From NCBI GenBank assembly GCA_030616305.1, contig JAUWXQ010000001.1, positions 1 through 40,498 on the forward strand: a stretch of DNA of 40,498 nucleotides, read 5' to 3'. The notes under the pieces are model-generated. The model was not told the origin of the DNA. It made no database searches and saw nothing but the letters and a program-made list of their open reading frames with translations. Source of the stretch: Hadesarchaea archaeon (GTDB lineage Archaea > Hadarchaeota > Hadarchaeia > Hadarchaeales > Hadarchaeaceae). A program made the translations under genes and the position numbers. Positions 15,106-29,883 of this stretch are shown here, one piece after another (position 1 is the stretch's first letter; the number at the start of each line of letters is the position of its first letter).

Positions 15106-15112
15106 CTCATTA

Positions 15113-15406
15113 TCATACCCTACTCAGCTTGAGTATGTCGGGCCGCAGGACCACTAGGCCTGTCGTTCGCTGTTTTGCATTTTCTAATGGCTCTGTAAAT
15201 CTCTCCCACACAATTTTGATGTAATCGCTGTTTTCCTCGGCAAGCCACCCGACCGTTTCTCTCACGCATGGCCCATGGGGATCAGGATAAACATCTTTGA
15301 AGAGAACGTGGTCTTTGTAGCGAATATAAACAACATCACCGACTTTCAATCTGAATCCCAGTTGAGTAAAGGTAACCTTGCTGTTTGAGCTTTGTGAAAA
15401 TTCCAA
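15113..15406 (-). CDS. Hypothetical small protein
   Basis: 97-aa ORF, beta-rich (VGDVVYIRYKDHVLFKD). No family recognised. Confidence 0.45.
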   Translation of the reverse strand: MEFSQSSNSKVTFTQLGFRLKVGDVVYIRYKDHVLFKDVYPDPHGPCVRETVGWLAEENSDYIKIVWERFTEPLENAKQRTTGLVVLRPDILKLSRV

Positions 15407-15661
15407 TTTTTTGGAATTTTAGAAATCCTCAAGACTTCAAAAGTTGATTACTTTTTCAAGGGAGGAAAAACTCATGCTATTTAAAACCACGCGAAATCTT
15501 TTTAAGAAAAGGATGATTCGGTCAGCCTTGCCTGAGCGTATCATACTGACCATAAATATTTTTCGCAAACCTTTAAATAATCATCATACTCTCTGTGGTT
15601 TTCTGCGATTTTTTTCTTGGTGGAATTACTGCATCATACAAAACAGAATACGGGTGAAAAA

Positions 15662-16885
15662 ATGATAATGGATATGGAATACTATAAGGCTCTGGAGAAA
15701 GAAGTGGAGAAAGAATTGGACGAACTCTTCAGCGACGACGAAAAAGAACTGCCCGAGCCAGAGGATATTTCTAAAGAAGTTAGTGGAAACTCTGGTCACG
15801 GTTCCTCACCTGAAAAAACCGATGTTCCAAAACCTGACGAAAAAAGCGACCGAGGTGTTGCCATATACCTGCGGGTCAGCACCGACCGGCAGGCAGAACA
15901 CGGGTACAGCCTTCAGGACCAAGAGGAGAGGCTGAGAGAAGAGGCACGGAGGAGGGGTTTTGCCCGTCTCTACAAAGTCGAGGATGCGGGCGAGTCGGGG
16001 ACAAACTTTGAGAGGAAGGGGCTGAGCGAGATTCTCCAGCTGGCTACTGGAAGAAAGATAGACACGGTTCTCGTGACGAGCCTCGACAGGATAGGGAGAG
16101 ATCTGATTGAGTCCCTCCATTATGCCCGTATGCTCCGGGAACTCGGAGTCAAAATTGCGGCGATGAGCGGGGAGACCGACATAGCGACGGAGGAGGGCCT
16201 CATGTATGCAACGATACAATTCCTTTCGGCGGAGCTAGAAAACAAGAGGAGGACTAAAACCTCGATTGCGGGCAGAGTTCAGAGCTTCAAACAAAAGCAC
16301 TGGAACAAACCCGTACCAAAGGGATACCTGAAAAAAGCGGACGGCTGGATAGAAAAGGACCCACGATGGGAACAGGTCATCAAAGACGTGTTCAAACTAT
16401 TTTTAGAGACTGGGAACTACCAAACCGTAAAGCACGTGATAAACGAGGAGCACAAAGAAACCCTGCCAAAACCCCTGACGCGCCAGCAGGTAAGGCAGAT
16501 AATATGTGATCCGGTATATGTTGGCAGGCCCCAGTACTCTGGGAAAGCCTCGAAAAAGGAGTTTGGAAGGGACATCACCGTGGAGGATTTGGCCCTAGCA
16601 TATGTGGATCAGAACACTTTTGAACGGGCTCGGGAGATATCCAAAAAAATTAAAGAAAAATACTCCCGCGGAAAGGAAAATGTAATCAATGCAGGGGAGC
16701 TCGTTAAGAAGTTCGGATCTACAATCTTGGAGGAAATCCCGCACATCGCCGTCATGTGTCCAGAGTGCGGAGAGAGGATGGTTAGGAATGGCACGAAAAT
16801 ACTCGACGGTTGCATCGTTCAGAACTACCTCTGTAGAAGTTGTAACAGACAGTGGAGACCTTGCAAAGAATGGGTAGGTCGGTAA
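15662..16885 (+). CDS. Large serine recombinase (resolvase domain + recombinase domain + C-terminal zinc ribbon)
   Basis: VAIYLRVSTDRQAEHGYSLQDQ (catalytic Ser), SLDRIGRD, a recombinase-domain region, and CPECGERM...CRSCNRQW. ATG at 15662 preceded by GGGTGA; the ORF track starts at 15617. Confidence 0.85.
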   Translation: MIMDMEYYKALEKEVEKELDELFSDDEKELPEPEDISKEVSGNSGHGSSPEKTDVPKPDEKSDRGVAIYLRVSTDRQAEHGYSLQDQEERLREEARRRGFARLYKVEDAGESGTNFERKGLSEILQLATGRKIDTVLVTSLDRIGRDLIESLHYARMLRELGVKIAAMSGETDIATEEGLMYATIQFLSAELENKRRTKTSIAGRVQSFKQKHWNKPVPKGYLKKADGWIEKDPRWEQVIKDVFKLFLETGNYQTVKHVINEEHKETLPKPLTRQQVRQIICDPVYVGRPQYSGKASKKEFGRDITVEDLALAYVDQNTFERAREISKKIKEKYSRGKENVINAGELVKKFGSTILEEIPHIAVMCPECGERMVRNGTKILDGCIVQNYLCRSCNRQWRPCKEWVGR

Positions 16886-16909
16886 AGATAGCCGACCTTC
16901 AATAAGCGT

Positions 16910-18400
16910 TTACGCCTTCCGAAGGCTTGTACAATTAGAAACAAGCCAGTCCTTCACGAACATCGCCGCTTTACAGTCGTCCTCGTTGTAGTTGACAATC
17001 TTCTGGAGTTTTGCCTTGTTTTTCTCTGGATCTTGGAGGTAACTGAGATAGTAGGCGATAGACTCTAGCGCAGTAACATCTTTGTGCCGCCATTGGAAAC
17101 CAAGACAGGTTGCCACCTCCTTCAGTCCGTTCCCGTAAGTTGGGAAAGCAAATGCAGTTGTGGCGTCCTTGTAAAGGTCCCTCATGTTGTCAAAAATCAT
17201 TTTTTCCGTTCTTACATCCATGCCATAGGTCTCAATAAGGCCCCTGAGGCGGGTTCGATCGTGATGGTGCCAGTGGTAAATGATGAAATCCTTTGCCTTC
17301 TGGACCCACTTCACGAATTGGTGGAACATCGCTTCCTCGTTGTCCAGAGTTTGAGCGAGGAAAGGGGTATAGGTGACCGTACTATTTTTCCTCACCAGAA
17401 CGCCTATGAGATAGTCTATGTCAATGAGTTGCGTGTCCCCAAGCTGTTGGCCGGTGTCCTCAAAGTCTAGGAAAATCTCCGTCCTCTTTGAGGGAAAATC
17501 CACCGATCCAATCTGGATTGGTTTTCCGCAGGCCAGGGCCTTTGCACATGTCACGAATTTGTTGGCGGTGGGCTTCCCGATACCGCGTATTTTTGCAAGG
17601 TCTGCCACTGATGCCGTAGCCAGATCCTGAACGGTTCTGTAGCCTACAGTGGCCAACCTCTCTTTGCGAGCAGGCCCAACGCCACTGACAAGCGAGACAT
17701 CACTACGCTTTTTCGCCTCCTCGTTACAGTAGGTTTCCCAAGGCCAATCGCAGGCACCGTATGTGGGTTCGACGGGTCTGCCACGCAAAATCTGTCTGAC
17801 CTCTTCAATGATATTCATCAACTTATTTTCATCATAAGGGCACTTGGAGACCACACCGTCCCGGTTGATCACGAAATAGGAGTTTGGCGTGAATCCTTGT
17901 ATCTTCCCCAGAAGATAGTTGTAGTAAGCCGTCGGTAGTAAGTGGTGATCTTTAATGTTTTTTGCTAACTTGACATCTTTTACCGTATAATGGTATCTGC
18001 CAAAAACCGAGGATGCAGACTTATCCTTCTCCAAGATGTCGGGAACGCCAAAGAGTCCCTCTGGTAAAAAGTAGAGTGGACCACCATGGATTGCCTTCAC
18101 GCCTTTCTTCATGCCCTCTAGAACCTTCCTAAAACCGTCCTTTGGATCCACGTATTCTAACGGGACCATCCCTGGATAAGCTTCCTTTACAACCGCCTCC
18201 TCGTGGTCTTTGGCCTGCGCAAACAGCATCTTGTGGAAATCTGTTATGGGGTCCTTCTTCTCCTCAGGAACAAAGTTTTCGCAATAGACTAAGAAAGGGG
18301 ATTTTACGTACTGATAGATAGTAGTTGCGGAAATCCTTATGTCAGTTTTCTCACCAAGGCACGACTCGTAGAGTTTTTGGATATCCATTTGTAATTCCAC
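16910..18400 (-). CDS. TM0106-family RecB-like nuclease (PD-(D/E)xK + HhH + RNase H-like exonuclease-like domain)
   Basis: GVPDILEK...YTVKDVKLAK (D...DxK) then YYNYLL. HhH repeats GVGPARKERL / IRGIGKPTANKF. IFLDFEDTG, YHWHHHDRTRL and YNEDDCKA resemble the C-terminal RNase H-fold module of this family. Confidence 0.75.
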   Translation of the reverse strand: MELQMDIQKLYESCLGEKTDIRISATTIYQYVKSPFLVYCENFVPEEKKDPITDFHKMLFAQAKDHEEAVVKEAYPGMVPLEYVDPKDGFRKVLEGMKKGVKAIHGGPLYFLPEGLFGVPDILEKDKSASSVFGRYHYTVKDVKLAKNIKDHHLLPTAYYNYLLGKIQGFTPNSYFVINRDGVVSKCPYDENKLMNIIEEVRQILRGRPVEPTYGACDWPWETYCNEEAKKRSDVSLVSGVGPARKERLATVGYRTVQDLATASVADLAKIRGIGKPTANKFVTCAKALACGKPIQIGSVDFPSKRTEIFLDFEDTGQQLGDTQLIDIDYLIGVLVRKNSTVTYTPFLAQTLDNEEAMFHQFVKWVQKAKDFIIYHWHHHDRTRLRGLIETYGMDVRTEKMIFDNMRDLYKDATTAFAFPTYGNGLKEVATCLGFQWRHKDVTALESIAYYLSYLQDPEKNKAKLQKIVNYNEDDCKAAMFVKDWLVSNCTSLRKA

Positions 18401-18411
18401 ACAACATTTGT

Positions 18412-18570
18412 CTATGAAAGATAAGGGTCCAAATAAAATTTTCCCCTCTGCTTGAAGCTCATCCCAAAATCCAAAAATATCTTCTTGTCGTCATCCTCCA
18501 GCAGGATCTTGTTTCCACCGATTTCATTGATGCCACCATAGAAAGTCAATTTTGTAATCATCGGTTTCAT
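18412..18570 (-). pseudogene. 52-codon stub of a metallo-beta-lactamase / beta-CASP (RNase J / aCPSF-like) gene N-terminus
   Basis: Hand translation gives MKPMITKLTFYGGINEIGGNKILLEDDDKKIFLDFGMSFKQRGKFYLDPYLS then a stop. It ends before the HxHxDH motif. Its ATG overlaps the upstream stop (ATGA). Confidence 0.6.
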
Positions 18571-19169
18571 CTCATGCTTTCTAATTCCTTTTTATTAGAA
18601 TAGACTTTCACATCCCTTTGGTTACTTAACCATTTTCTATACTCTTCTTCAAACTCAAACTTTTCTCGGGTTGATAGAAAAATAATGTACCGACCCGAGG
18701 CAGGGGAAGTTACCTCCCTTTTGAGTTTATCGAAAAGATATTCCATCTCATCTTTCCACCCACTATCTGTTTTGTTAAGTTTCGTTTCAATTCCAATGCT
18801 CAATGGCACCCGCTTTAAATCCTCTCCGTCTTTTGGGAAATTTCGGCTATTTGGATACAGTATTGCGATATCCAATCTCCCATGCGTTTCTTTTTTAGCA
18901 TTGCCACGTTTGTATTTCTCCTTTGTAATTTTCTCCCTAACCAGCAAAATCAGATCTCTTCCATCTTTTGTCTTAGCGAAAAGCATGTTTTCTTTTTGAA
19001 GCTCATTGGCAAGAATGTAGTAAAGCAATTCCTGAAACTGTTGTTCATTCCCGAACTTTTCTTGATTTTTGCTGAAGTAACCTATCGCTTGTTCGATGCT
19101 CCTTTCTACAATTTCTCGTAGCTTTCTATCGATCTCGCCCACGTCGCCGTAGAAGGTCAAAGTCGTCAT
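18567..19169 (-). CDS. PD-(D/E)xK-like nuclease-fold protein
   Basis: 200-aa ORF. GRLDIAILY...LSIGIETKLN fits D-x(n)-E-x-K. The N-terminus MTTLTFYGDVGEI mimics the MBL stub's N-terminus. Confidence 0.55.
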   Translation of the reverse strand: MTTLTFYGDVGEIDRKLREIVERSIEQAIGYFSKNQEKFGNEQQFQELLYYILANELQKENMLFAKTKDGRDLILLVREKITKEKYKRGNAKKETHGRLDIAILYPNSRNFPKDGEDLKRVPLSIGIETKLNKTDSGWKDEMEYLFDKLKREVTSPASGRYIIFLSTREKFEFEEEYRKWLSNQRDVKVYSNKKELESMR

Positions 19170-19401
19170 CGTTCATTTCTATGGGCTTGAAAGATATACT
19201 AATTTTGTTTGAGGGAAAATAAAACGGATGACATGAGCGCGGCGGGTGATAACTGGTGAGGTGTATCCTCCAAACCCCGCCGCAAGGCCCAGAACCATCT
19301 TCCAAATTTCCAATTGGAGGCTGGAAACTTGAGGAGGACTGGGCCACGGGATACTCGGAGAAAGGGTAAAAAAAGGTTGAGGTTCAGTTAAAGGGGAGAG
19401 C

Positions 19402-19596
19402 ATGAACTACCGCGAACTCAAGGAGCTTGCGAGGCGTGCCGATCGGGCAAAGGGTGAGGAGCGCAAGCGGTTAGTGGAGACGCTGATCCAAGAGCTACCC
19501 GCGCTGGACCCGTTTGAGGGTTGTGATGAATTCACGATTTGGCTTGCGAAACTGGTGGCGAGGGTGAAGTGGTATGACGCCCAAGGGCTATCCTGA
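19402..19596 (+). CDS. Small helical hypothetical protein whose 3' end carries repeat copy 1
   Basis: 64-aa ORF ending ...TIWLAKLVARVKWYDAQGLS. Confidence 0.4.
   Translation: MNYRELKELARRADRAKGEERKRLVETLIQELPALDPFEGCDEFTIWLAKLVARVKWYDAQGLS
19540..19572. repeat. 33-bp perfect direct repeat, copy 1
   Basis: tggcttgcgaaactggtggcgagggtgaagtgg, identical to 20213-20245. Confidence 0.9.
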
Positions 19597-19678
19597 GGGT
19601 GAGCATGGCCTATTAGTAAGGGGATTAAGTAAGATGTTGATACTTGCATCGATGGCGAACAAGGGATGGTGAAATCGT

Positions 19679-20158
19679 ATGGTTAGAGAGGAAGTCCCCC
19701 AGAAATGGATTGTCGTTGATGACGAGCTTGTTGAAAAAATCAAGCGGGTCATCGACTTCGCATTGGTGTATGAAACCGCGACCCGTGGAAAGCGAAAGCT
19801 TGGAATCACCGCAGAGGTGGGTGAGATTCTAGTTTGTCATCAGTTTGGACTTCGCCTGATGTCGAATGTTCGTTCTGAAGGATTTGACGCGCTTGACGGC
19901 GATGGGAAGCGGGTTCAAATTAAGACCCGTCGGAGCGAAACAAAAGGTTTACCACGGGATGTTGGCCGGGTAGGTCAGTTTTCGAAACATCCATTCGACT
20001 ATGCGATGCTAGTGCTCTTGGATCATGATTACAAACTCTGTGAAGTTTGGCGGGCAGAGTATGACAACCTACTACCAATTATCGGGAAGGAGAAGAAACG
20101 GAACCCTCACATATCATCGTTTAAACGTGTGGCAAAAAGGATCTTCCCTCCGAGTTAG
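19679..20158 (+). CDS. Small PD-(D/E)xK-like nuclease (restriction-endonuclease-like fold), no adjacent methyltransferase
   Basis: AEVGEILVCHQFG...EGFDALDGDGKRVQIKTRR fits E...D...QIK. Appears homologous to the 178-aa protein at 22623-23159. Confidence 0.55.
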   Translation: MVREEVPQKWIVVDDELVEKIKRVIDFALVYETATRGKRKLGITAEVGEILVCHQFGLRLMSNVRSEGFDALDGDGKRVQIKTRRSETKGLPRDVGRVGQFSKHPFDYAMLVLLDHDYKLCEVWRAEYDNLLPIIGKEKKRNPHISSFKRVAKRIFPPS

Positions 20159-20212
20159 GAATCGGACTTTCACCCATCAATCAGTTCGATGGCTTCAGCG
20201 AGGGGGCGGTGT

Positions 20213-20245
20213 GGCTTGCGAAACTGGTGGCGAGGGTGAAGTGGG
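20213..20245. repeat. 33-bp perfect direct repeat, copy 2
   Basis: Identical to 19540-19572. Sits in a 26-codon mini-ORF, MASAEGAVWLAKLVARVKWVDVSEFN (20189-20269). Confidence 0.9.
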
Positions 20246-20297
20246 TTGATGTTAGCGAGTTTAATTAGAGATTTAGATATAATTGAGGTCGGTAAAA

Positions 20298-20681
20298 ATG
20301 GACTCCAAGGGTTTAGACGAACACGGATTTAAAGGATGGCATCCATTAAACAAAATTACTGTTTCAGATGTTCCCTACAAACAAGGGGGTGTTTACGCAA
20401 TTAGACTAAAAACCGCTTTGGAAAGAAAGATAGGCAAGTCTGATATTCTTTATGTCGGTTCTTCTGATAATCTGAAGAGACGAATTTTTGGGAACTATCT
20501 GGGTGGCGTTGGTGGAAAAACTACTCAAAGAATCCACAAATTGTTGTTTGAAGAAGGGTATTCAAAAAGGACAGAAATTAGTTGGGCTATTACTGAAAAT
20601 TTTAGAGAACTGGAAAAAGACTTGAGGATAGGGTATTTACGGGAACATAAGGAGTTACCGCCTTGGAATAAACAATTGTGA
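20298..20681 (+). CDS. GIY-YIG-like nuclease-domain protein
   Basis: GGVYAIRL...DILYVGSSDNLKRRI...E fits GIY / YIG / Arg / Glu. ATG at 20298; the track starts at TTG 20283. Confidence 0.6.
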   Translation: MDSKGLDEHGFKGWHPLNKITVSDVPYKQGGVYAIRLKTALERKIGKSDILYVGSSDNLKRRIFGNYLGGVGGKTTQRIHKLLFEEGYSKRTEISWAITENFRELEKDLRIGYLREHKELPPWNKQL

Positions 20682-20797
20682 GGGTTGGTATCAAGTGAAA
20701 CTGAAGTGGGGCGATGCGGGCGGGATTTCGACTGGTTTGAAGCGTGAGTTATTCCCTAAAATCGTGCGGAGATAAGGCTGAAAGATAAAATTTGCAT

Positions 20798-21466
20798 TCA
20801 CTCATCTGCGGGTGCCGGCGTTTTTTGTGGATATGAACATATGTCTTCAATTGAGCACTGGTGGCACTTGGGTAGCTTGGGCCTGCAAACGATGTTCGCA
20901 AAGTCCAGCATGGCCAAATTAAGTTCTCGCCCCTTGTTTTTAGGTAGCAAGCTTTCTACAAAAGACCATATGTTTTGATCTGCCCTTGCGCGTATCTTTT
21001 TTGATTTTACTTGAAAAACCCTCCCCACAACTCGTATGGTGTTCGTATCGACCAGAGGCAAGGGTTTGTTGCAAGCCAAACAGAGCACAGCATTCGCAGT
21101 ATATTCCCCTACGCCCGGGATCCTCTTCAGCTCTTCGACATCCATTGGAATTTTTCCGCGATGTTTTTCTAATAGGTATCCTGCCACCCTGATTAAGAGC
21201 GGGGAGCGCTTTTTCTGCATCCCCAGCGGTTCTATTATCCCCTCCAGCTCGGAAGTGTCGGCTTCCGCCAGTGCCTTGGGGTTGGGGTATTTTTTTACCA
21301 GCTTTCTAAAAATTTTATTTACTTGATTTCTTGTCGTTTTTCTCAGCAACATCTCTGCCAGCAAAATTTTGTACGGATTTTTTGTTTCCCTCCAAGGGAA
21401 CCTAAGAAAATTCCTGCGGTGCCATCGCAAAAGTCTTTTAGCAAATATTTTCTGTCGGTTTTCCAT
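20798..21466 (-). CDS. HhH-GPD DNA glycosylase with a 4Fe-4S loop, Mig/MutY-like (putative T:G mismatch glycosylase)
   Basis: HhH motif LKRIPGVGEYTANAVLCLA with Tyr where EndoIII has the catalytic Lys. VDTNTIRVVGRV carries the catalytic Asp. CRPKLPKCHQCSIEDIC fits C-x6-C-x2-C-x5-C. An alternative start at 21520 would overlap the upstream gene. Confidence 0.8.
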   Translation of the reverse strand: MENRQKIFAKRLLRWHRRNFLRFPWRETKNPYKILLAEMLLRKTTRNQVNKIFRKLVKKYPNPKALAEADTSELEGIIEPLGMQKKRSPLLIRVAGYLLEKHRGKIPMDVEELKRIPGVGEYTANAVLCLACNKPLPLVDTNTIRVVGRVFQVKSKKIRARADQNIWSFVESLLPKNKGRELNLAMLDFANIVCRPKLPKCHQCSIEDICSYPQKTPAPADE

Positions 21467-21503
21467 TTTTATCGCCTCTGCGGAAGACAGCACGAGAATA
21501 AAA

Positions 21504-22547
21504 TCAAAGGGGTTGGGCAAACCAGCTTGTGGTCCTTTCTATCCCCCCGAATCTTTTTTCAATGTCGCCCAGCTGTTCTTCAAAGTAGGTCTGAAATGCT
21601 TCTCTGTAATCGGAGAACTTGCCGTATTTGGGCGGTAGCCCGCTTCTTTTAGAGAGCGCCCCACTTTTTATTCTTGGCAATGGGACATTCGGGATAATCT
21701 TTTGGTTTTTCACGGCCGAAGAAACGAATTCGCTCCAATTAGTGCTTTTTTCGAGCCTTTTGAGCGAAAATCCTACATTTTCTCTAACCTCGGCACCAAA
21801 CCATGAGGGGTCGTCGGGGTCAAAGAGCTCTGTTTCACCACCGAAATAGAAACCTCCGTTTTTCCCGAATTTTTCATCAAGATCCGCCCGCGCCTTTTTT
21901 CTATCCGGGGCGTCACCGGAATAGGTATTAACCACATTTTGAACGTCGACCCACGAAGCGAATCCACAGATTTTGCACGGTATTTTATCCACTTTTTCCA
22001 CAACTTCGCTGACTTTCTCCACCCACTCTTTGGTCATTTTTCTTTTAACTTCCGGCACGTTCTCCGCTAGAAAAATGAAGTGCTCATCTGGGAGGCCCAC
22101 CCACACCGCCACGTAAGCATCGTACGGCCTCCGTCTTACCGAAGATGCGGATATCAACAGCCATTTTTGATCTCTTCTAACCTCCTTAACGTCGATCCAA
22201 AATTTCGCCGGCTCCCAGTCTCCTTTTATCTTCATAGCGACCAGGTCTGGAAGGTACATCCCACTGTAAAAATCTGCAATTCCGACTTCTGTGAGGATTT
22301 GCAAGTCAAACCTGCTCTTGAGAAACAATCTAAAAGCTTCCTCTGCGATTTTGCCGTAGATAAAGTTTTCGACAAATTCGCCAAGCGTCCTCATGCGCCC
22401 GCCCGCCATCCCGCTGTACTTTGTTATCTTATCAGCAAGGTACGCGTAAGAAGTGAATCCGATGATTTCCAGATATTTCTCCTTTTCTACAAATACTTCT
22501 GTGCTGGTCGGCGTGCTCTCTATTTCTTCCAACGACCCTACTTTCAT
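21504..22547 (-). CDS. PD-(D/E)xK nuclease-like protein with an uncharacterised C-terminal domain
   Basis: GKIAEEAF...YLPDLVAM...FWIDVKEVRR fits E / PD / DxK. 347 aa. Directly upstream of the glycosylase on the same strand. Confidence 0.55.
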   Translation of the reverse strand: MKVGSLEEIESTPTSTEVFVEKEKYLEIIGFTSYAYLADKITKYSGMAGGRMRTLGEFVENFIYGKIAEEAFRLFLKSRFDLQILTEVGIADFYSGMYLPDLVAMKIKGDWEPAKFWIDVKEVRRDQKWLLISASSVRRRPYDAYVAVWVGLPDEHFIFLAENVPEVKRKMTKEWVEKVSEVVEKVDKIPCKICGFASWVDVQNVVNTYSGDAPDRKKARADLDEKFGKNGGFYFGGETELFDPDDPSWFGAEVRENVGFSLKRLEKSTNWSEFVSSAVKNQKIIPNVPLPRIKSGALSKRSGLPPKYGKFSDYREAFQTYFEEQLGDIEKRFGGIERTTSWFAQPL

Positions 22548-22622
22548 GTGGCTCTATCCACTTTAGTGGTCCCCCGCAAGCTATAAAGTCTGTTTTTGCA
22601 ACAATTAGACTAGGTCGATAAA

Positions 22623-23159
22623 GTGCCCAGGGAAGAGACAATAGAAATTATTGTACGCAACAAAACCGCAACAGCGAGAATCAGAAAGTGGCACAGAAGA
22701 GACATAAAAATCTTGAGGAAAGCTCTTCATAATTGGGGTAATTTGGTAAAATTTTTGAAGAAATATGCAAGTCGCAGGACAAATCTTCCTGAACTCATTA
22801 GTGAGGCGTTGTTCTGTATTTATACTGGTTCTGTTCAAGTTTTGGACGTGAAGAATGTTGGCAAAGGGTTTGACTGTTATAACGAAAAAACCAAAAAAAC
22901 ACAGCAGATCAAAGGCTCTTCAAGAAGAGATTCGCCTTCCAGTTTTGGCCCGCATGAAAAATTTGATGAAGTGTATTGGGTTGTAATCGAGGAAACAAAT
23001 AGTAGGTTCAAATTTGAAATTTATAAATTGTCAAAGAAAAGCGTTGTAACTCATCCAAGTTTCCGGCCACTTGCTCGGGAGGGCAGAAGACCAAGATTTC
23101 TTCTCTTGGATATCGTTAGGGACAAAAAGCTAAGGCCCATAGCAAAAGGATACATCTAG
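22623..23159 (+). CDS. Small PD-(D/E)xK-like protein, candidate cognate type II restriction endonuclease
   Basis: ELISEALFCIYTG...KGFDCYNEKTKKTQQIKGSS...SSFGP. Convergent with the C5-methyltransferase and 3 nt from it. GTG start. Confidence 0.5.
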   Translation: MPREETIEIIVRNKTATARIRKWHRRDIKILRKALHNWGNLVKFLKKYASRRTNLPELISEALFCIYTGSVQVLDVKNVGKGFDCYNEKTKKTQQIKGSSRRDSPSSFGPHEKFDEVYWVVIEETNSRFKFEIYKLSKKSVVTHPSFRPLAREGRRPRFLLLDIVRDKKLRPIAKGYI

Positions 23160-23162
23160 ATT

Positions 23163-24557
23163 TCATTTGCACCGGTTTAGGGTATCTTTAACCAGCAAAG
23201 CTATGGTTTTGCTGGCAAGGGGAGGAACAGCTTCACCTATCTGCCTGCGCACTTCTGAAGGACTGCCCTTGAAAAGAAAATCGTCGGGGAACGTTTGAAT
23301 CCTCGCCCTCTCCCTATTTGTTAATTTTTGTCTATCTCTTCTGTAGTGATAGCCCCAAGTCCCCCCGCCACCCCTGGCTATGATCGTTGGCGACGGCTTC
23401 AGCGGGTGAATTCGGCGGTATATGTTGCTCATGAGCCCCGTTACTTCGTGCGAGGTTCCTCTCACGAACTCGTGGTTTTCTCCAGGCGGAATAAAGCCCA
23501 TCCTTTTTTTAATGGCTTCTTTTTCGTTGAGTATCTGGTGGGTGTTGTCTTCCAAGACTAAATCGTTAACAGGCTTCTTCCAGTAGCCCGATTCTTTTAG
23601 AACTTCTTCGTGTTTTTTCATGACATCTTCTTTTATTTTTTCGTTGATGGAAGTCGAAAGGCCGTTCACAAAAAGGTAGTCGTGCCATATCTCGAGCCTG
23701 TATTTGCTCCACACGTTTGGGAAATACTGATTGCTTCTAATAGACGATATTTTTTCTGATATATCGCCATATTCTCTCATTAGTTCTTTATAGTCTTCTT
23801 CCAGCTGATCAAGCGTTTTTCCTGAAAATACTTCAATGGGCGTAATGGGGAATGAACAAAGTAAATTTGGCCCCAGCAACTCCTCGCTTATCTTTTGTTC
23901 CAGTCCCAGCAAATCAAATTTTTTTGCCATGTCTTTTCTTATCCCGATTATTATAATCCGCTCTCTCTGCTGGGGCGCCCCAAGCTTGGAAAAGTTGGCA
24001 ACGGAAGAGAATAATAATTTGTAGCTCTCCTGCCCGTTATTGTTTTTTGCTGTTTCAACGGATTTCCTGTGGTTTTTCCACATCTCGCGCCAGCTTAAGT
24101 TAAGGTTTTCGAAGTCCTCAACAATTTTTCTAAAGGCTAGGCCACCGTTTACAGAAGTGAGACCTTTCACATTCTCGAAAACGAACATCTTTGGCTGTAG
24201 GGCGACCAAGGCACGCACAAAATGGACATAGAGCCTGCCTCTTTTTACACCGATTCCTTTCCGCTTTTCGGAGCCCCTGATCAAAGAAAAATCCTGGCAG
24301 GGCGGACCGCCGGTAACCACATCTATTTCTTTAGAGCACAAGCTAGAAAAATCGACTTGCTCCACATCGCCGGTAAAAAAACTGCCTTCGGTGGCCTTGG
24401 GATCCTGTGTAATTTTCAATCCAAATCTGCCCGAAAAAGTCTCGGCAGAGGGGCGATACAAGTCGTTGGCCCAAACGACCCTGAACTTTTCTGTGAGTTC
24501 AAACCCCAAGTCGAGGCCACCACATCCGCTGAACAGAGAAACTATGTTGAATTTCAT
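23163..24557 (-). CDS. DNA (cytosine-5)-methyltransferase
   Basis: Motif I SLFSGCGGLDLGF, motif IV GGPPCQDFS, motif VI ENVKGL, motif VIII QQRERIIIIG, motifs IX/X TFPDDF...RRQIGEAVPP. Long variable region between motifs VIII and IX. Confidence 0.9.
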   Translation of the reverse strand: MKFNIVSLFSGCGGLDLGFELTEKFRVVWANDLYRPSAETFSGRFGLKITQDPKATEGSFFTGDVEQVDFSSLCSKEIDVVTGGPPCQDFSLIRGSEKRKGIGVKRGRLYVHFVRALVALQPKMFVFENVKGLTSVNGGLAFRKIVEDFENLNLSWREMWKNHRKSVETAKNNNGQESYKLLFSSVANFSKLGAPQQRERIIIIGIRKDMAKKFDLLGLEQKISEELLGPNLLCSFPITPIEVFSGKTLDQLEEDYKELMREYGDISEKISSIRSNQYFPNVWSKYRLEIWHDYLFVNGLSTSINEKIKEDVMKKHEEVLKESGYWKKPVNDLVLEDNTHQILNEKEAIKKRMGFIPPGENHEFVRGTSHEVTGLMSNIYRRIHPLKPSPTIIARGGGGTWGYHYRRDRQKLTNRERARIQTFPDDFLFKGSPSEVRRQIGEAVPPLASKTIALLVKDTLNRCK

Positions 24558-24617
24558 TTCAGCCCCACCGCATACCGCTTGTCACTTCGATCCAGCAACC
24601 CACGGTCATCCTCTCGA

Positions 24618-24884
24618 TTATTTGACTATCTCCCATCCGGACTTTTTGTTGCAGTAGATAAGGAACTCCTTTTGCATGACGTTTTGCACGCATCTGAGCC
24701 TGTGCTTCCATTCTGGCTGGTGCGTGGGGGTCACTGCATAGTGAGTACATTTCTCGTGGTCGTTGCAGTACCCCGGACATCTCTTTTTGATAATTTTGTA
24801 AAGTTGAGGCGTTGTTTTGGGGCTGTCTCGGAGGGCCCTTAATATCTCCCCCCTGAACCGCTTGGTTCGTTTGTTCATGTGCAC
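24618..24884 (-). CDS. Small winged-helix protein (Mrr_N-like wHTH) with a Cys/His cluster
   Basis: RGEILRALRDSPKTTPQLYKIIKK...EWKHRLRCVQNVMQKEFLI...KSGWEI resembles Mrr N-terminal-type wHTH. CPGYCNDHEKCTH insert. Lies between the recombinase and the methyltransferase. Confidence 0.5.
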   Translation of the reverse strand: MHMNKRTKRFRGEILRALRDSPKTTPQLYKIIKKRCPGYCNDHEKCTHYAVTPTHQPEWKHRLRCVQNVMQKEFLIYCNKKSGWEIVK

Positions 24885-25942
24885 ACCAACGACTCTTTTT
24901 GCTTGTTGGTAAAACCACTTTTGGTGAAGGGCCCATATGACCGCGTGAGAGGGGGCGCCGTAAGTCGTTTTCCTTGATTACCTCCCTCTGCCTCCTTTAG
25001 AAGCTCAAAGTACTCATTGAATATTCTGTCTATTTTCGCCTTCCTCCTGTCATCGGGCATCGGCGACCTCTTGGCTCCGCCGTCCTTGAACCTGTGCATA
25101 GTTTTGGTCGCCTTCTCGAAAAGCTCGTCTTTAATGATCCTACACTCCTCAATAACATCATCGACACCGGCAACTCTATAGGCTCCGGTGTAAAGCTCGT
25201 TAGCTAATACGTCCCTCACGGCTCTGGAATTCCACGGTTTGCCTTTTTTCGTCAAAATGTTCTCTTTGTTAAGCTCGAAAGCGACCTGATCAATCGACCT
25301 GTTTTTTACATACCTTTTGAAGATCCGCCGGACGAGCCTGGCCTCTTTCTTGTTTACCTTGAGTCCCCCATCTTCCGTCTTGTCGTAACCCAGCGGAGGG
25401 TGATCGTTTGGCCATTTGTGTTGTTTTGCGAGCGCGAACATCCCCATCCTCGCCCTCTCTCCGATCAGCTCACGCTCGAGTTCGGCCACCGACGCCAGAT
25501 TCCTGTAGTTGAACCTTCCCACCGAGGTCGTAGTGTCTATATACTCAGTGACGCTACAGAGCCCCACCCCCCACTCGCGGAGCTGTCTTTCCACATTCAC
25601 GAGGTCCACAAGCGACCGACAGAACCTATCGAGTTTCCAAAAGATGATCACATCAAATGCCCCTGCTTTGGCCCGCTCCAGCATCATCTGGAACTTCGGC
25701 CTTTCGATAGTTCCCCCGCTCACGCCGTCCTCCTTGAACACGTAGCTCGCTCTCCATCCTTTCTTGTCGCAGTAGTCCCAGCACCGCCTGATTTGCTCCT
25801 CCATGCTGTAGCCGAACCTCTGGTTTGGGGAGGAGGTTCTCGCGTAGATGGCGGCGAGCACTGCGTTTTTCTCGTCTCTTTTGTTTTCAGTTCTGGTAAA
25901 TATTGCAGTACAAATTTCCTGCTCAGCTTTAGCTCCGGCCAT
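24875..25942 (-). CDS. Serine recombinase (resolvase catalytic domain + recombinase domain)
   Basis: AAIYARTSSPNQRFGYSMEEQ (catalytic Ser), KLDRFCRS, PLGYDK...ARLVRRIFKRY. ATG at 25942 preceded by GGAGAGAGG; the track starts at 25969. Confidence 0.85.
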   Translation of the reverse strand: MAGAKAEQEICTAIFTRTENKRDEKNAVLAAIYARTSSPNQRFGYSMEEQIRRCWDYCDKKGWRASYVFKEDGVSGGTIERPKFQMMLERAKAGAFDVIIFWKLDRFCRSLVDLVNVERQLREWGVGLCSVTEYIDTTTSVGRFNYRNLASVAELERELIGERARMGMFALAKQHKWPNDHPPLGYDKTEDGGLKVNKKEARLVRRIFKRYVKNRSIDQVAFELNKENILTKKGKPWNSRAVRDVLANELYTGAYRVAGVDDVIEECRIIKDELFEKATKTMHRFKDGGAKRSPMPDDRRKAKIDRIFNEYFELLKEAEGGNQGKRLTAPPLTRSYGPFTKSGFTNKQKESLVCT

Positions 25943-26533
25943 TCCTCTCTCCTGTATGCTTAAGCACACAAGAGTGTATATGCTAAAGAGTATTTAAATG
26001 TTTTATAATTGTCCGTAACCAAAATCCCAAGGTGAACCCCCCACTACCACTGCAGCAGCTCCAAGGGGGCCTGAGAAACGGCAACAAGATGTTTGAGTTA
26101 AACATAGCTCCCCCCACATCGCTTGCGAAGTTGAATAACGCCCCCACAAAGAGGAGCATAGAAAATCCACATTCGTTTCAGTGTTGCCCTCACAGAAGAT
26201 ACTGATAAGAAAGGAAGCATTAAAAACATTAAGACATTGTGTTATTAATGTTGTTACATGAAGTTGCGCAGGGGGTTATCAAAGGAAATTGGAGGATTTA
26301 TGGTGGATGAAGAAATCAAGAAATGGGCAGAAAATGCTGAAAAAGGAATTGAACTGGGAAAACCTGCCTATATTGTGAAAAGCGATATTACCTCCAACAG
26401 TTCAAACAAACGAACTCACACATCGATGAAAGTTATTCCAACGTCGCACCCTACCCGCTTGAGATGCTCCATGAGATTTAAAGGCAAATCGCTCCCAACT
26501 TCCAAATTTGCAAATTGAGAGGTGCGAGGGAGT

Positions 26534-27298
26534 ATGAGTGAGATAATCAAAAAAGTGAGAAAGCGTGACGGTAGCATAGTCGACTTCGATCAAGAGCAGA
26601 TAACCAATGCCATCTTCAAAGCCGCCATCGAGGTCGGGGGGGGGCGAAACAGGAGGATCGTGGAAAGGCTGTCTGATGAGGTCGTCAGAGTTTTGGAGGA
26701 AAAATACGCGGGCACGATCCCGGGAGTCAAGGACATTCAGGATGTCATTGAAACGGTCCTGATTGAGCATGGCCACGCGAGGACAGCGAAAGCTTTCATC
26801 CTCTACCGAACAAGAGAATCCCAAATGTTGTCACTGGGTGCAGATAAACCCAAAGTATTTGTGGTTTATGGGCATAATCGAGATACTCTTTCTAAGTTAG
26901 AATTAACGCTTCGCCAAATAGGGGCTGAACCACTGATTTTTAATCAATTACCTACATCCGGTTCTCAAACAATTATTGAAATATTAGAAGAGAATATCCC
27001 GAAAGCTGACGCAATAGTGGTTCTACTAACACCTGACGACGAGGGCAGGAAACGGAACAGCGATGCAAAACTGGAACCTCGAGCCCGCCAGAATACTTTA
27101 ATAGAAGCAGGTTATGCTGTGATTTCGCAGCGTAAGAAAAGTATCCTAATTTCTCTTGGTGGTGTAAAAATTCCAACTGACTTTGATGGCATCTATAAAG
27201 TAGAAGATTTGCAGTGGTCTGATACAGTTGCTTTTCATGTTGCAAAGCGTTTACAAAATATGGGACTAAAGGTTGATCCAACAAAAGCTATTAGATAA
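26534..27298 (+). CDS. ATP-cone domain fused to a TIR-like (Cap12/PycTIR-type) effector domain
   Basis: N-terminus: IIKKVRKRDGSIVDFDQEQITNAIFKA...DIQDVIETVLIEHGHARTAKAFILYRTRE, ATP-cone as in NrdD/NrdR. C-terminus: KVFVVYGHNRD, VVLLTPDDEG, PRARQNTLIEAGYA and KIPTDFDGIY match the family described as predicted nucleotide-binding protein containing TIR-like domain. ATG at 26534 after GAGGTG/GGGAG; the track starts at GTG 26522. Confidence 0.75.
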   Translation: MSEIIKKVRKRDGSIVDFDQEQITNAIFKAAIEVGGGRNRRIVERLSDEVVRVLEEKYAGTIPGVKDIQDVIETVLIEHGHARTAKAFILYRTRESQMLSLGADKPKVFVVYGHNRDTLSKLELTLRQIGAEPLIFNQLPTSGSQTIIEILEENIPKADAIVVLLTPDDEGRKRNSDAKLEPRARQNTLIEAGYAVISQRKKSILISLGGVKIPTDFDGIYKVEDLQWSDTVAFHVAKRLQNMGLKVDPTKAIR

Positions 27299-27436
27299 GA
27301 CTAATCGTTTTAACAATAAATTTGGGATGATCGATAAACTGGCCAGCCCCTTTCTGATCATCAATGTATCTCTAGTGCTACTCGCAAGCTTCGGGTTCTG
27401 GAGTGAATGCCTAAGTTCACTTTGGTTTCAAACCTT

Positions 27437-27658
27437 TCAGCGCGATCTTCTGCTACTCAAAAGCTTGTTGAGTTCTTCCCTGTGAACCTTCAGCCATCTG
27501 AGTTCGTCCACAAACTCGTATTTTTTGTCCAGGTATTCCTTCACAGCTTTGACGAACGCTTGCGCGACACTTCTCTCATTCCCATTTTCGACCTCTTCCC
27601 TTACTCTAGTGTAGACGTCTACAGGGACGGTCACACATTTCTGTCCGGGTTGGGGCAT
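27437..27658 (-). CDS. Ribbon-helix-helix-like small regulator
   Basis: KCVTVPVDVYTRVREEVENGNERSVAQAFVKAVKEYL fits a strand-helix-helix pattern. Divergent from the wHTH gene across a palindromic operator. Confidence 0.5.
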   Translation of the reverse strand: MPQPGQKCVTVPVDVYTRVREEVENGNERSVAQAFVKAVKEYLDKKYEFVDELRWLKVHREELNKLLSSRRSR

Positions 27659-27674
27659 TTTTACTCCTCCATTA

Positions 27675-27738
27675 AACTGTTAATTAACAGTTAAATATAT
27701 AGGTGTCTCCTCGTTAAATTAACTGTTATAAAACTGTT
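27675..27738. promoter_or_regulatory. Operator-like cluster: an 18-bp perfect palindrome plus two direct AACTGTT half-sites
   Basis: aactgttaattaacagtt (27675-27692) is self-complementary. aactgtt recurs at 27721-27727 and 27732-27738, 11 bp apart. Lies in the divergent intergenic region next to the TATA-like ttaaatatata. Confidence 0.6.
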
Positions 27739-27772
27739 GGAGGACGGCGAAAGTTGTTAAAAAGGTGAAAAA

Positions 27773-28129
27773 ATGGCGATCGACTTGGGAGGAAGCCGAC
27801 AAATGCGAATAAACCATATCGCGACTTGCAATCGGGTGAAGCTAGAGCTTTTGAAAGCGTCGAAGGGCAAACTATTTTCAATCAGTGCCCTTGCTGAAAA
27901 AACAGGGTTTGATTGGCACACAGTGAAAAAATGTATCGAGGAAGACATAGGAGAAGAGTTGGATGGGCGGTTGTCCAGAACCACTACAAATGGACAGGAG
28001 ATATTTTTCGTGGAGCCACTGGCCTGTGACGTGTTGTCTAGAGCCGAACAAAAAGCAAAAGAAGAACGGAAGTTAGGGCTGGCAGAAGAGATAGGATCTG
28101 TACGGGGGAGATACTGCTCGGTATCGTAG
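27773..28129 (+). CDS. Winged-helix/HTH-like DNA-binding protein
   Basis: 118-aa ORF. KGKLFSISALAEKTGFDWHTVKKCIEE looks like an HTH. Charged C-terminal helix. Confidence 0.5.
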   Translation: MAIDLGGSRQMRINHIATCNRVKLELLKASKGKLFSISALAEKTGFDWHTVKKCIEEDIGEELDGRLSRTTTNGQEIFFVEPLACDVLSRAEQKAKEERKLGLAEEIGSVRGRYCSVS

Positions 28130-28130
28130 A

Positions 28131-28439
28131 GTGATAACTTTTACGGAGGTGTTTGAGGTGAAGTCATACAGAAGACAAGTTGAGAGTATACCTGATGGTG
28201 ACACCTTTGAAATATACAGAAGGATTCAAGGTTCAAACAAAATTAGATTAGCCAATGTCGATGCGCCGGCAGGAAATACGAGATCTGGCAAAAAGGCAAC
28301 GAATACTCTAAAAGGGATGATAGAGGACAGAACCGTAACCATAAGGCCCGTTGCGAGAGACCGATACGGCAGAATTGTGGCGGAAGTGTTTGCGGATCGA
28401 AAAAACGTAAATCGGAGAATGAGAGAAAAAGGATACTAA
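28131..28439 (+). CDS. Staphylococcal-nuclease (SNase/thermonuclease)-like domain protein, minimal size
   Basis: IPDGDTFEI...KIRLANVDAPAGNTRSGKKATNTLKGMI...RDRYGRIVAEVF...VNRRMREKGY is collinear with the SNase core. DAPE reads DAPA here. GTG start 1 nt after the upstream stop. Confidence 0.65.
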   Translation: MITFTEVFEVKSYRRQVESIPDGDTFEIYRRIQGSNKIRLANVDAPAGNTRSGKKATNTLKGMIEDRTVTIRPVARDRYGRIVAEVFADRKNVNRRMREKGY

Positions 28440-28485
28440 ACGAAGAGGATAAATACTTTCCTTACTTATTTTTTAATGTGTCCAT

Positions 28486-29166
28486 GTGATCGTCTCGTGC
28501 AGAATATTTAAACTGGAAAAAGTTTATCCGCTAAAAGAACTGCAAAAAAAGCTCCGAAAAAAAGGAATTATAGAGAAAGTTAGATTCAAAACGAATGGGA
28601 GGATTTTAAAATTACTTACTTTTATTGATGATGTTATTATGAAAGAAAATGATCTTCATGGATCGGTTAGTTATGAATCCCCTTTGCCAATTTTGCAGGC
28701 AGACGGTACAATAGAATGGGTTAAAGAGGCAATCAAAGTTAAGTTTGTTTTTGCTCCCTTTGGGAATTCAATATTTTTTATCCCATTCGGTTCGAACGCA
28801 GAGAGTGCGGCGACAAAGATGAATAACGCAATTTTTAAGGCCGATACGATCCTGAAGCAAGCATTTTCATCGGATATGATTGAAAGGTTCCTGAGTCAAA
28901 ACCCACATATATGGAAGAGTGGCAGGTGGGCTGGGCTCAATATACCAGGCATTTCAAAAGCGGCTTTAGCGGGCGCAGACTTATTGCGATCACCGGACTC
29001 TAGGAGGTATGACGTACATGGACACAAGAGCTTCGCTCTTGTAACATTAAAAGAAAATGGGTGGACGATAGGACTAAGCCAAAAAGGAGTAGTCGTTTTT
29101 TATTCCGAAGTAAGCAAAGAAGAGATATTACAATTTGTAAAAAGTAAGATCTTTTCTCTGCTGTAA
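28486..29166 (+). CDS. Hypothetical protein (start uncertain)
   Basis: 226-aa ORF from a GTG, same strand as the wHTH and SNase-like genes. No motif recognised. Confidence 0.45.
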   Translation: MIVSCRIFKLEKVYPLKELQKKLRKKGIIEKVRFKTNGRILKLLTFIDDVIMKENDLHGSVSYESPLPILQADGTIEWVKEAIKVKFVFAPFGNSIFFIPFGSNAESAATKMNNAIFKADTILKQAFSSDMIERFLSQNPHIWKSGRWAGLNIPGISKAALAGADLLRSPDSRRYDVHGHKSFALVTLKENGWTIGLSQKGVVVFYSEVSKEEILQFVKSKIFSLL

Positions 29167-29184
29167 AAACATTAATTATCGACA

Positions 29185-29883
29185 TTAAAGGTATACTGTG
29201 ATCATCTTTCGCAATATTGATGCGACATTTTGGTCTATGTTACCATAAGCTATTATTTTATCTCCAAATAGGTCAATCGAGTACTTATCTTCAATTTTCG
29301 CGGCGAGGGAGCTTAACTCAAGTCCGGATAAGACTCCTGTTAACTCATATATGTTTTTCAGCTCACAAACCAGACTTCTTTTCTCAAACTTTGCGTCCTT
29401 AATAACCTTTCTTAGACATTCTTCTATCTTCTCCGCCGCCGTTACCAAGTCTAAAATGTGGCCAACAAATTCTTTGTATCCACATAACGCTGTAAGATTC
29501 GCATCTATTCCTGAAATAATTACTTTATCTCCCATAGGTTCGAAAGCAAGCATGACTTCAGCATCTATCTCAGTTTTACCGCTTTCGAAATTAAATTTAA
29601 AATCCTCCCCCCGAGGCTCTAATTCGAAACCTTCGTTTTTTAGCTCCTTTTTAATAGACTCCTTAATTTCATTAAGAATTAAATTCTCATCGGTCAAATC
29701 ATTTGTTTTAGTCGTTAAAATCGTTTTGATATGCGGATTTCTAATGATTTTACTAAGCCATTTTTTGCGGTACTTTATTCTAAATCGCAATTCCGGGCCA
29801 GCAAAAAGTTCAACGAGTACATACACTACAAAAGAGATAATTATCCCAGTTGCAATCACTATCAAAATTTCAGAAATTCCCAT
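29185..29883 (-). CDS. N-terminally membrane-anchored hypothetical protein
   Basis: 232-aa ORF with TM segment MGISEILIVIATGIIISFVVYVLV and a cytoplasmic mixed alpha/beta domain. Last gene before the right island end. Confidence 0.55.
   Translation of the reverse strand: MGISEILIVIATGIIISFVVYVLVELFAGPELRFRIKYRKKWLSKIIRNPHIKTILTTKTNDLTDENLILNEIKESIKKELKNEGFELEPRGEDFKFNFESGKTEIDAEVMLAFEPMGDKVIISGIDANLTALCGYKEFVGHILDLVTAAEKIEECLRKVIKDAKFEKRSLVCELKNIYELTGVLSGLELSSLAAKIEDKYSIDLFGDKIIAYGNIDQNVASILRKMITVYL

Follow-up and report, generated by a model that had tools for sequence, protein, structure and literature searches.

A gene of a Hadesarchaea archaeon joins a ribonucleotide reductase ATP-cone to a CAP12/PycTIR-type TIR-like domain and is very probably a young chimera

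We analyzed a stretch of 40,498 nucleotides (nt) from a Hadesarchaea archaeon (GenBank assembly GCA_030616305.1, contig JAUWXQ010000001.1, positions 1 to 40,498), here called the window, and examined one open reading frame (ORF) in it that carries an ATP-cone and a TIR-like domain. The comparisons with related loci indicate that this gene is almost certainly a young chimera, in which a fragment of nrdG-nrdD, encoding class III ribonucleotide reductase (RNR) functions, replaced the TPR part of a stand-alone TIR gene of the PDC-S35 type. PDC-S35 is a candidate single-gene defence system in PADLOC. Judged by the sequence searches, what is new is an unreported domain architecture in one young instance, and what is known is its effector type, a CAP12/PycTIR-type TIR. 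The best explanation of the whole, to which we give somewhat less than an even chance, is that the chimera arose in this way and that its product is a TIR NAD+ hydrolase (NADase) gated by the cone. The gene is the following.

26534..27298, plus strand: chimeric ORF, NrdD-type ATP-cone in frame with a CAP12/PycTIR-type TIR-like domain, 254 amino acids (aa) plus stop

The ORF list gives two possible starts, GTG at 26522 and ATG at 26534, and a single end at 27298 on the plus strand. Read from the ATG, the protein contains all motif blocks of the cone and the TIR that a first-pass annotation of this DNA had listed (VRKRDGSIVDFDQEQITNAI, AKAFILYRTRE, KVFVVYGHN, LLTPDD, RARQNTLIEAGY, and IPTDFDG), including the Glu. 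That annotation had proposed two domains in one polypeptide, and Pfam, AlphaFold2 and Foldseek all agreed with it. The ATP-cone family PF03477 matched residues 6-95 (E 2.6e-20; 73.2 bits against a cut-off of 25.8), and CAP12-PCTIR_TIR (PF10137) matched residues 107-223 (E 3.1e-26; 92.2 bits against a cut-off of 24.7), spanning model positions 1-115 of 119. Both profile hidden Markov model matches are far above the curated cut-offs. The RNR models of NCBIfam matched residues 4-98 only and stayed far under their own cut-offs. The RNR-derived share of the fusion is its first ~92 residues, with neither the RNR catalytic barrel nor the NrdR zinc ribbon.

The AlphaFold2 model, built from a mixed alignment of trimmed cones and TIR-only relatives, was confident, with a mean predicted local distance difference test (pLDDT) score of 89.8. 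In a Foldseek search of the PDB, the cone half, with the four-helix and beta-hairpin fold of ATP-cones, matched those of RNRs (5im3, 5olk, 8p28, 9d3x; E ~1e-7 to 1e-5), and the flavodoxin-like TIR half matched the TIR of SfSTING/Cap12 (7un8_A) with a root-mean-square deviation of 3.0 A over 143 columns and a probability of 1.00. Further matches of the TIR half were a second Cap12 (9lmq) and the TIRs of SPARTA and SARM1. By sequence, the ATP-cone matched the PDB entries 5olk, 5im3 and 8p23; the TIR half found no match when the fusion sequence alone was searched against the PDB, and a family profile was needed for its matches.

We found a Logan contig of run SRR14872661 that is 100% identical to positions 25741-27529 of the window (1789 nt) and crosses both junctions of the chimera. 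Because the identity runs through both junctions, the fusion gene is not an assembly artefact of the metagenome-assembled genome (MAG).

The origin of the gene is shown by its alignment with locus L002, which encodes a 359-aa TPR-TIR protein (P0003), and with the nrdG-nrdD genes of locus L005. The parts are as follows.

26300..26518, plus strand: leader ORF of 72 codons, preceded by a GGAGGA Shine-Dalgarno (SD)-like motif and called as a gene in the Logan contig
26383..26386, no strand: left junction, out-of-frame join of ancestral codon 27 and nrdG; the similarity to L002 stops at 26383
26384..26533, plus strand: 3' end of nrdG (RNR activase), a co-captured pseudogene fragment recognized by NrdG homology
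26534..26808, plus strand: nrdD-derived ATP-cone with its native start codon, residues 1 to ~92, recognized by nrdD homology
26806..26814, no strand: right junction, nrdD codon ~92/93 in frame to the TIR module; homology to nrdD ends at 26808

L002 aligns with the window in two blocks only, at 26304-26383 (84% identity) and 26815-27289 (78%). The first block is the first 80 nt of the P0003 gene and the second its last 472 nt, and the ~524-nt TPR-coding middle of that gene is replaced in the window by 432 nt (26384 to ~26815). At positions 26303-26383 the leader still holds codons 1-27 of the old TPR-TIR gene, and beyond them it reads out of frame into nrdG; the leader peptide VDEEIKKWAENAEKGIELGKPAYIVKS corresponds to MDDEIKKWVENAEKGIELDKPAYVLKS at the N-terminus of P0003.

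The NrdG frame, (R)YYLQQF, begins at 26383/26386. The frame of the fragment (26386-26541) translates as YYLQQFKQTNSHIDESYSNVAPYPLEMLHEI and, beyond an in-frame TAA at 26479-26481, as RQIAPNFQICKLRG. It aligns gap-free with the last 46 residues of the L005 NrdG (48% identity, E 1e-15), and the remnant carries this one in-frame stop and no indel. At its end, the stop codon overlaps the ATG of the cone, an arrangement also seen in intact nrdG-nrdD operons; in L005-L007, nrdG and nrdD overlap by 4 nt. The cone DNA (275 nt) is 70% identical to the 5' end of the L005 nrdD from the ATG to window position 26808. The captured piece consists of the last ~47 codons of nrdG and codons 1 to ~93 of nrdD. 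Since the nrdG tail continues directly into the nrdD cone with the native overlap, a single fragment was captured. The gene had been described as not near nrd genes, which was not correct, as the 150 nt directly upstream are this nrdG fragment.

On the right side, similarity to L002, L003 and L004 begins at 26811-26815, so that the junction lies ~12-18 nt upstream of the ATG of the TIR module, a few codons past the ILYR end of the cone. To within ~6 nt, this is also the site at which the three closest TIR genes cease to resemble the window: their similarity breaks off a few nt at most from 26811-26815, and at the other end it stops with the stop codon. There is no long shared repeat at either junction in the window sequence.

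These alignments establish the following course almost with certainty. The ancestor was a stand-alone PDC-S35-type TIR-like effector gene with a P0003-like TPR region at its N-terminus, located on a mobile low-GC island in a Hadarchaeota genome. Its TPR-coding segment was exchanged for the 432-bp nrdG-nrdD piece from a GC-richer genome. The out-of-frame left junction produced the 72-codon leader ORF and the dead nrdG tail, and translation from the nrdD start through the in-frame right junction would yield the cone-TIR protein. The earlier proposal that the ATP-cone replaces the sensor was borne out at the DNA level, where cone DNA occupies the place of the P0003 TPR region; its second part, the sensing of nucleotide pools, is something we infer, as is the depletion of NAD+.

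Base composition points to the age of the event. The GC content at third codon positions (GC3) falls from 0.64 in the cone to 0.27 in the TIR part (26816-27298), the lowest value in the window. Host core genes in the window have a GC3 of 0.48-0.72, a range that includes the cone. In the three closest relatives, the N-terminal part (0.35-0.36) and the TIR part (0.23-0.33) are homogeneous. Because of this GC3 break, and because the nrdG remnant has one stop and no indel, we consider from the sequences that the capture is evolutionarily recent and that the fragment came from a genome richer in GC, of which the present host is an example. No donor nrdG-nrdD turned up in the protein searches, where the best cone identity anywhere was 66-76%.

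The TIR half contains two further landmarks.

26825..26827, plus strand: codon of Met98, aligned to the initiator Met of TIR-only members of ~155 aa (P0006, P0016, P0023 and P0094)
26852..27202, plus strand: TIR-like domain, residues 107-223 (PF10137), with the presumed catalytic Glu191 at 27104-27106

A profile of the TIR part found Cap12 (7un8, E 9e-10; 9lmq, E 7.5e-9) and PycTIR (8jsj, E 1.7e-7) in the PDB. In this profile search, Glu191 is aligned with the Glu of the NVVFEFG motif of Cap12 and the NVHLEFG motif of PycTIR, and it is invariant across the TIR family alignments. We take the equivalent residue of SfSTING, E84, to be catalytic. Compared with 75 relatives, the TIR part has 0 rare residues at 54 conserved columns, where the natural median is 2. 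A conserved catalytic Glu has been described in the CAP12/Pycsar TIR clade (bioRxiv 10.64898/2026.04.30.722052).

In PADLOC, the fusion protein matched five PDC-S35 models (E 3.5e-33 to 5e-28) and the PycTIR model (E 5.8e-6). By these matches, its TIR family is not new and is the PADLOC candidate PDC-S35. The closest TIR relatives, P0002, P0003 and P0004, share 74-78% aa identity over the C-terminal ~155 residues and have no cone. At the nucleotide level, the TIR modules of the window, L003 and L004 are mutually 82-84% identical, and that of L002 is 75-78% identical to these. Relatives of the PDC-S35 type (e.g., P0010, P0020, P0016) are solitary genes amid housekeeping genes, with no cyclase. 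The N-termini of the family carry TPR, REC, AbiJ_NTD3 or lipoyl domains, unassigned regions, or nothing at all. The three closest TIR genes have N-termini with differing or no Pfam assignment and no detectable shared DNA similarity, and among L002, L003 and L004 themselves the similarity reaches only some 10-30 nt further upstream than the breakpoint in the window.

We found SD-like motifs ahead of the ATG equivalent to Met98 in L002, L003 and L004 (GGAGAAG, GGAGGAG, and CAGGAGAA). Since such a motif precedes the conserved ATG in these relatives, the module resembles a self-contained cassette that brings along a ribosome-binding site. The window has ACAAGAGAA at the same place, and the SD-like motif of the Met98 ATG was lost at the junction. 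This loss favours translation from the cone ATG, that is, the fused product.

A second singleton chimera with the same TIR module, P0015 (L092, 184-963), carries the N-terminal lipoyl domain of a 2-oxoacid dehydrogenase E2. The lipoyl part has a GC3 of 0.69 and the TIR part one of 0.41. As the flanking DNA is also GC-rich on either side, it is the TIR module that seems to be foreign in this chimera. P0015 suggests that the capture of housekeeping 5' fragments is recurrent in this TIR family.

The cone half shares 66-68% aa identity with the NrdD cones of P0109, P0113, P0219 and P0036, and the best identity in a cone-only search was 66%, or 76% over a 58-residue fragment. The cone ORF is intact, begins with its own ATG, and has a GGGAG/GAGGTG motif upstream. 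In the AlphaFold2 model, the means of 10-residue blocks over residues 1-90 were 86-96. We mapped the roles of cone residues by motif alignment to published structures (PMC11447812, PMC11226230, PMC5794259). The mapping shows that K10, R11 and R92 are kept, corresponding to the site-1 phosphate ligands K9, R10 and K91 of E. coli (PMC11447812), as are Q69, the D70-R92 pair and the KRDG hairpin. Also kept are I77, K86, I89 and L90, which match residues of the dATP-induced alpha3/alpha4 cone-cone interface of LbNrdB (PMC5794259).

What is known of both domain types makes the combination mechanistically sensible. ATP-cones oligomerise on binding of dATP in NrdB and NrdD (PMC5794259, PMC11226230), and nucleotide binding controls the oligomerisation of NrdR (PMC9110341). 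TIRs of the CAP12/Pycsar clade are active NADases upon oligomerisation (bioRxiv 10.64898/2026.04.30.722052). Because cones are nucleotide-driven oligomerisation switches in NrdA, NrdB, NrdD and NrdR and TIRs fire on oligomerisation, a cone is a sensible replacement for a sensor. In the proposed mechanism, the cone would bind an adenine nucleotide, the likeliest signal being dATP or the dATP/ATP ratio, and cones would associate through the retained alpha3/alpha4 interface. This association would bring TIR domains together and lead to NAD+ hydrolysis via Glu191. The cone would thereby do the job of the STING, cNMP (cyclic nucleotide monophosphate)-binding domain or TPR of the relatives, reading the nucleotide pool directly.

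On this analysis, a function as a nucleotide-pool-sensing defence protein is plausible. That the product is an abortive-infection-type NADase, gated by the cone and reading the nucleotide pool, is possible, though we think it less likely than not. The more specific proposal, a working immune effector whose TIR NADase is switched on by dATP/ATP-dependent self-association of the cone with no dedicated second messenger, we regard as rather unlikely and offer tentatively. The intact ORF with its own start, the position of the junction, the lost internal SD-like motif, the canonical TIR and the kept cone residues suggest a function.

The strongest competing explanation is an evolutionary accident. 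Here, the cone would be a passive or decaying passenger, and the locus would be inactivated or would work via a TIR-only product from Met98, with no nucleotide sensing. We consider this a serious possibility, its chance clearly short of even. The observations that weigh against a cone-gated effector concern the rarity of the fusion, its youth, the state of the cone and the independence of the TIR.

The fusion was a singleton in all searches. An exhaustive phmmer search covered 1.84e9 representative proteins, and among its top 150 matches, which reach down to ~85 bits, there was no second protein with both halves. In a word-indexed full-length search, both Pfam domains occurred in the query only among the matches listed, and scans of genome, metagenome and viral contigs gave no second cone-TIR fusion. 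The best 120 of 3490 matches in a TIR-profile search all had PF10137 only. According to Pfam, the partners of 56 closely related cone proteins were NRDD, RNR-N, NrdR and PRK, with no TIR. The first-pass annotation had called the gene a candidate single-gene defence system; the protein and contig searches make it a singleton and not an established system. In the literature searched, no paper links an ATP-cone to a TIR or to anti-phage defence, in line with the first-pass annotation, which knew of no described defence system with this architecture, and PDC-S35 itself had neither a mention nor a published defence phenotype there.

The fusion is also young. Its unameliorated composition and surviving scars indicate a recent event, and by sequence it is a recent product of illegitimate recombination with scars on both sides, the left junction being out of frame. 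Because it is recent, selection has had little time to test it, and given this youth the intact ORF says little on selection.

Compared with 119 related cones, the captured cone shows five rare states at conserved columns, and the TIR shows none. E66K replaces a Glu present in 119/119 relatives, and K22Q replaces a residue that is K/R in 116/119; the others are A43V, K74T and an extra Gly36. At least five rare states occur in only 8/119 natural cones, so that the captured one ranks with the 9 most deviant of 120; tandem-cone proteins account for several of the extreme natural cases. In E. coli NrdA, K21 holds the triphosphate of the second nucleotide at site 2 (PMC11447812), and in our motif mapping its equivalent, K22, is lost as Q22. 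Arg87 and Arg91 of PcNrdD neutralise triphosphates and bridge cones (PMC11226230). In the fusion, the last cone helix is cut after ILYR, and the equivalents of both residues are gone at the junction. A deviant cone beside a perfectly conserved TIR fits drift of an unconstrained cone, and from model and sequence the cone is folded and partly canonical and is either drifting or changing.

The family includes TIR-only members as solitary genes, so the TIR could be under selection independently of the fusion. Since such genes exist and Met98 aligns with their start, the cone may be dispensable. The GC3 break of the lipoyl chimera P0015 likewise suggests that captures of this kind are frequent by-products.

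However, several observations are difficult to reconcile with an accident. The right junction keeps the frame and falls only a few codons from the end of one domain and the start of the other, at the site where the similarity of the three closest relatives to the window breaks off. The SD-like motif of Met98 was destroyed at the junction, and the cone keeps its own start signals. Had the deviations of the cone arisen after the capture with the gene under no selection, ~6 deviations would be predicted in the 54 conserved TIR columns, but 0 were seen. A deregulated TIR domain is toxic in a characterised relative (bioRxiv 10.64898/2026.04.30.722052), so a tolerated fusion is probably regulated or silent.

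The cone could instead act as a bait that co-assembles with the cones of viral or host RNRs or with NrdR-like cones, so that the appearance of a viral RNR triggers the TIR. Cone-cone pairing via alpha3/alpha4 is documented for dATP-inhibited NrdB, NrdA and NrdD (PMC5794259, PMC11226230), the fusion retains the interface residues, and phages encode cone-bearing RNRs, e.g., a phage NrdD. But the host's own NrdD would set the TIR off all the time, the searches gave this one fusion only, and the idea is purely inferential, with no example of the mechanism in the literature searched. We therefore regard it as improbable.

It is still less probable that the gene encodes a metabolic enzyme, in which a flavodoxin/NDT-like TIR domain processes a nucleotide or NAD metabolite and the cone provides ATP/dATP feedback control. 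ATP-cones are indeed fused to metabolic enzymes such as uridine kinase (PF00485+PF03477 proteins), and databases annotate the TIR family as 'nucleotide-binding protein' only. However, the gene sits on a mobile low-GC island with restriction-modification (RM) genes, away from nucleotide-metabolism genes; its cone replaced a TPR region in a gene of a defence-candidate family; its closest characterised homologues, Cap12 and PycTIR, are immune NADases; and the fusion is conserved in no lineage. Least probable of all is a mis-join of cone and TIR parts from different genomes by the assembler, as could be suspected from a metagenome-assembled contig with a sharp compositional break at the junctions, because Logan used a different assembler and gave an unbroken identical sequence, pieces of a single ancestral gene border the insert on either side, unlike in a mis-join, and the junctions have no long shared repeat.

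Among the closest known systems, PDC-S35 proteins such as the TPR-TIR proteins P0003 and P0010 resemble the fusion in the TIR module (74-78% aa and 75-84% nt identity to P0002-P0004), in being solitary without a cyclase, and in the point at which the N-terminal region is joined. They have TPR, REC, AbiJ_NTD3, lipoyl, unassigned or no N-termini, whereas the fusion has an RNR ATP-cone. Cap12, the TIR-STING of CBASS (SfSTING, 7UN8, 9LMQ), belongs to the same Pfam TIR family, with an aligned Glu and a structural match, and presumably shares the logic of a ligand-driven oligomerising domain that switches on a TIR NADase. In contrast to Cap12, the fusion has no STING, CD-NTase or cyclic-dinucleotide signal, and sequence identity is ~20%. 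In the fusion, ordinary adenine nucleotides would be the ligand, and the domain that is the candidate for binding them stands at the N-terminus. In PycTIR of Pycsar (8JSJ), the TIR belongs to the same family and is C-terminal to the sensor, an order that the fusion shares with its putative sensor. Pfam and PADLOC scans detected neither the CD-NTase with STING/SAVED of CBASS nor the PycC cyclase with cNMP-binding domain of Pycsar, in the protein or in the ~43 window ORFs. As the first reading of the window had stated, no cyclase, CD-NTase, PycC, SAVED or cNMP-binding domain turned up in these ORFs; STING was likewise not found there. The closest known cones are that of class III RNR NrdD (e.g., Prevotella copri, 8P28) and those of NrdR and Leeuwenhoekiella NrdB. 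The fusion cone matches 8p28, 5olk and 5im3 in fold but stands apart from RNR and Zn-ribbon domains of any kind.

The regulation of RNRs and of the repressor NrdR is the role in which ATP-cones have been described to date, and here we also found them fused to uridine-kinase-family (PF00485) domains. The TIR NADases of the CAP12/PycTIR clade have been studied with cyclic-nucleotide sensors. If a cone-gated TIR were confirmed, it would mean that the dATP/ATP pool, an expected target of viral perturbation, can be coupled straight to immune effectors. It would be, as far as we searched, the first defence protein found to read the deoxynucleotide pool via an ATP-cone, and the birth of a new sensor-effector pairing could be reconstructed base by base. 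The 254-aa fusion is compact and testable. Whatever its function, it is a clean record of a defence protein gaining an N-terminal domain, in which the donor fragment, the junctions, the old start and the GC3 break can be read. The three closest TIR genes, with other N-termini joined at the same point, bear on how defence proteins gain sensors.

Candidates for related cone architectures that came up in the searches were rejected. A weak nSTAND3/AAA_16 match among cone proteins is probably a P-loop cross-match of a uridine-kinase fusion, and the phage match H16, whose alignment seemed to run from cone to TIR, turned out to be a phage NrdD of the usual kind. Partial N-terminal alignments (PADLOC PDLC05003, query residues 42-252; plasmid matches from residue ~35) raised the possibility of a hidden cone in the ~290-aa proteobacterial proteins that are common in the TIR family, but the N-terminal domain of these proteins proved unrelated to the cone (hhalign probability 1.1%). 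We also looked for natural cones that share K66 and T74 by a degenerate-DNA search with VKDIQDVIET in JGI metagenomes; its one match, L091, has a non-cone context and is a chance match.

Another feature of the cone ORF is a homopolymer.

26636..26644, plus strand: G9 homopolymer in the cone ORF, Gly35-37

The G9 run encodes GGG where 118/119 related cones have GG, a +3 expansion in which G36 is the extra residue. The tract could be a place of slippage or phase variation, by which the fusion might be turned off. Among the cone relatives, the nrdD of P0109 (L005-L007), the closest full-length NrdD, contains an intein with a LAGLIDADG domain and adjoins genes for dCMP deaminase and nrdG. In the proteins P0194, P0179, P0186 and P0146 (410-490 aa), there is an NrdD-like ATP-cone and, in most of them, a second, degenerate one, while the long C-terminal part matches nothing in Pfam; these proteins could be divergent fragments of NrdD or a family with cones that is so far uncharacterised.

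The fusion gene lies on a genomic island.

12100..29700, no strand: low-GC island of ~17.6 kb with the fusion gene, delimited by L024 synteny, GC profile, Pfam and PADLOC

In the Hadarchaeales locus L024, the homologues of the window ORFs 11754-12071 and 29731-30468 are adjacent, which indicates that the window segment of ~12.1-29.7 kb is an insertion. The island is absent from L024, the sole syntenic Hadarchaeota relative available, and its extent matches the low-GC stretch. A neighbouring aldolase is 84-89% identical to proteins of Hadarchaeota MAGs, and the adjacent rhomboid gene is syntenic. A repeat search gave no convincing att-type direct repeats flanking the island.

The gene had been placed in a recombinase-rich island beside an RM module and nucleases, and the island contents agree with this. 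Pfam and PADLOC identified a tyrosine integrase and two serine recombinases, a type II C5 methyltransferase (MTase; PADLOC E 1e-138) with a Bsp6I-like restriction endonuclease (REase), an HhH-GPD protein matching the PADLOC 'Type II nicking endonuclease' (E 2e-45), a methyl-directed-REase-like protein, a Cas4-like/RNase_H_2/HhH protein, and an SNase. The HhH-GPD nicking-type protein, the C5 MTase and the Bsp6I-like REase are encoded in one cluster at 20798-21520 (minus strand), 22623-23159 (plus) and 23163-24557 (minus), which resembles an RM module with a mismatch-repair companion.

Other genes of the island and its surroundings deserve a brief description. The 496-aa protein at 16910-18400 (minus strand) has a weak Cas4-like N-terminus (PADLOC E 7.5e-5), HhH motifs and RNase_H_2 (PF13482). 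A 43-nt direct repeat, 91% identical, occurs at 19535-19577 and 20207-20249, upstream of two adjacent ORFs, one at 19679-20158 (DUF6998, methyl-directed REase-like, PADLOC E 1e-13) and one at 20283-20681 (no match). Convergent to the TIR gene is a 73-aa ORF at 27437-27658 (minus strand; MPQPGQKCVTVPVDVYTRVREEV...), which looks ribbon-helix-helix-like by eye and has no Pfam or PADLOC match. Outside the island, a tRNA-Gly(TCC) at 6469-6546 is followed by two ORFs (6617-8106) that have no homologue in the Hadarchaeota loci examined, and this tRNA-adjacent pair may be a second small insertion.

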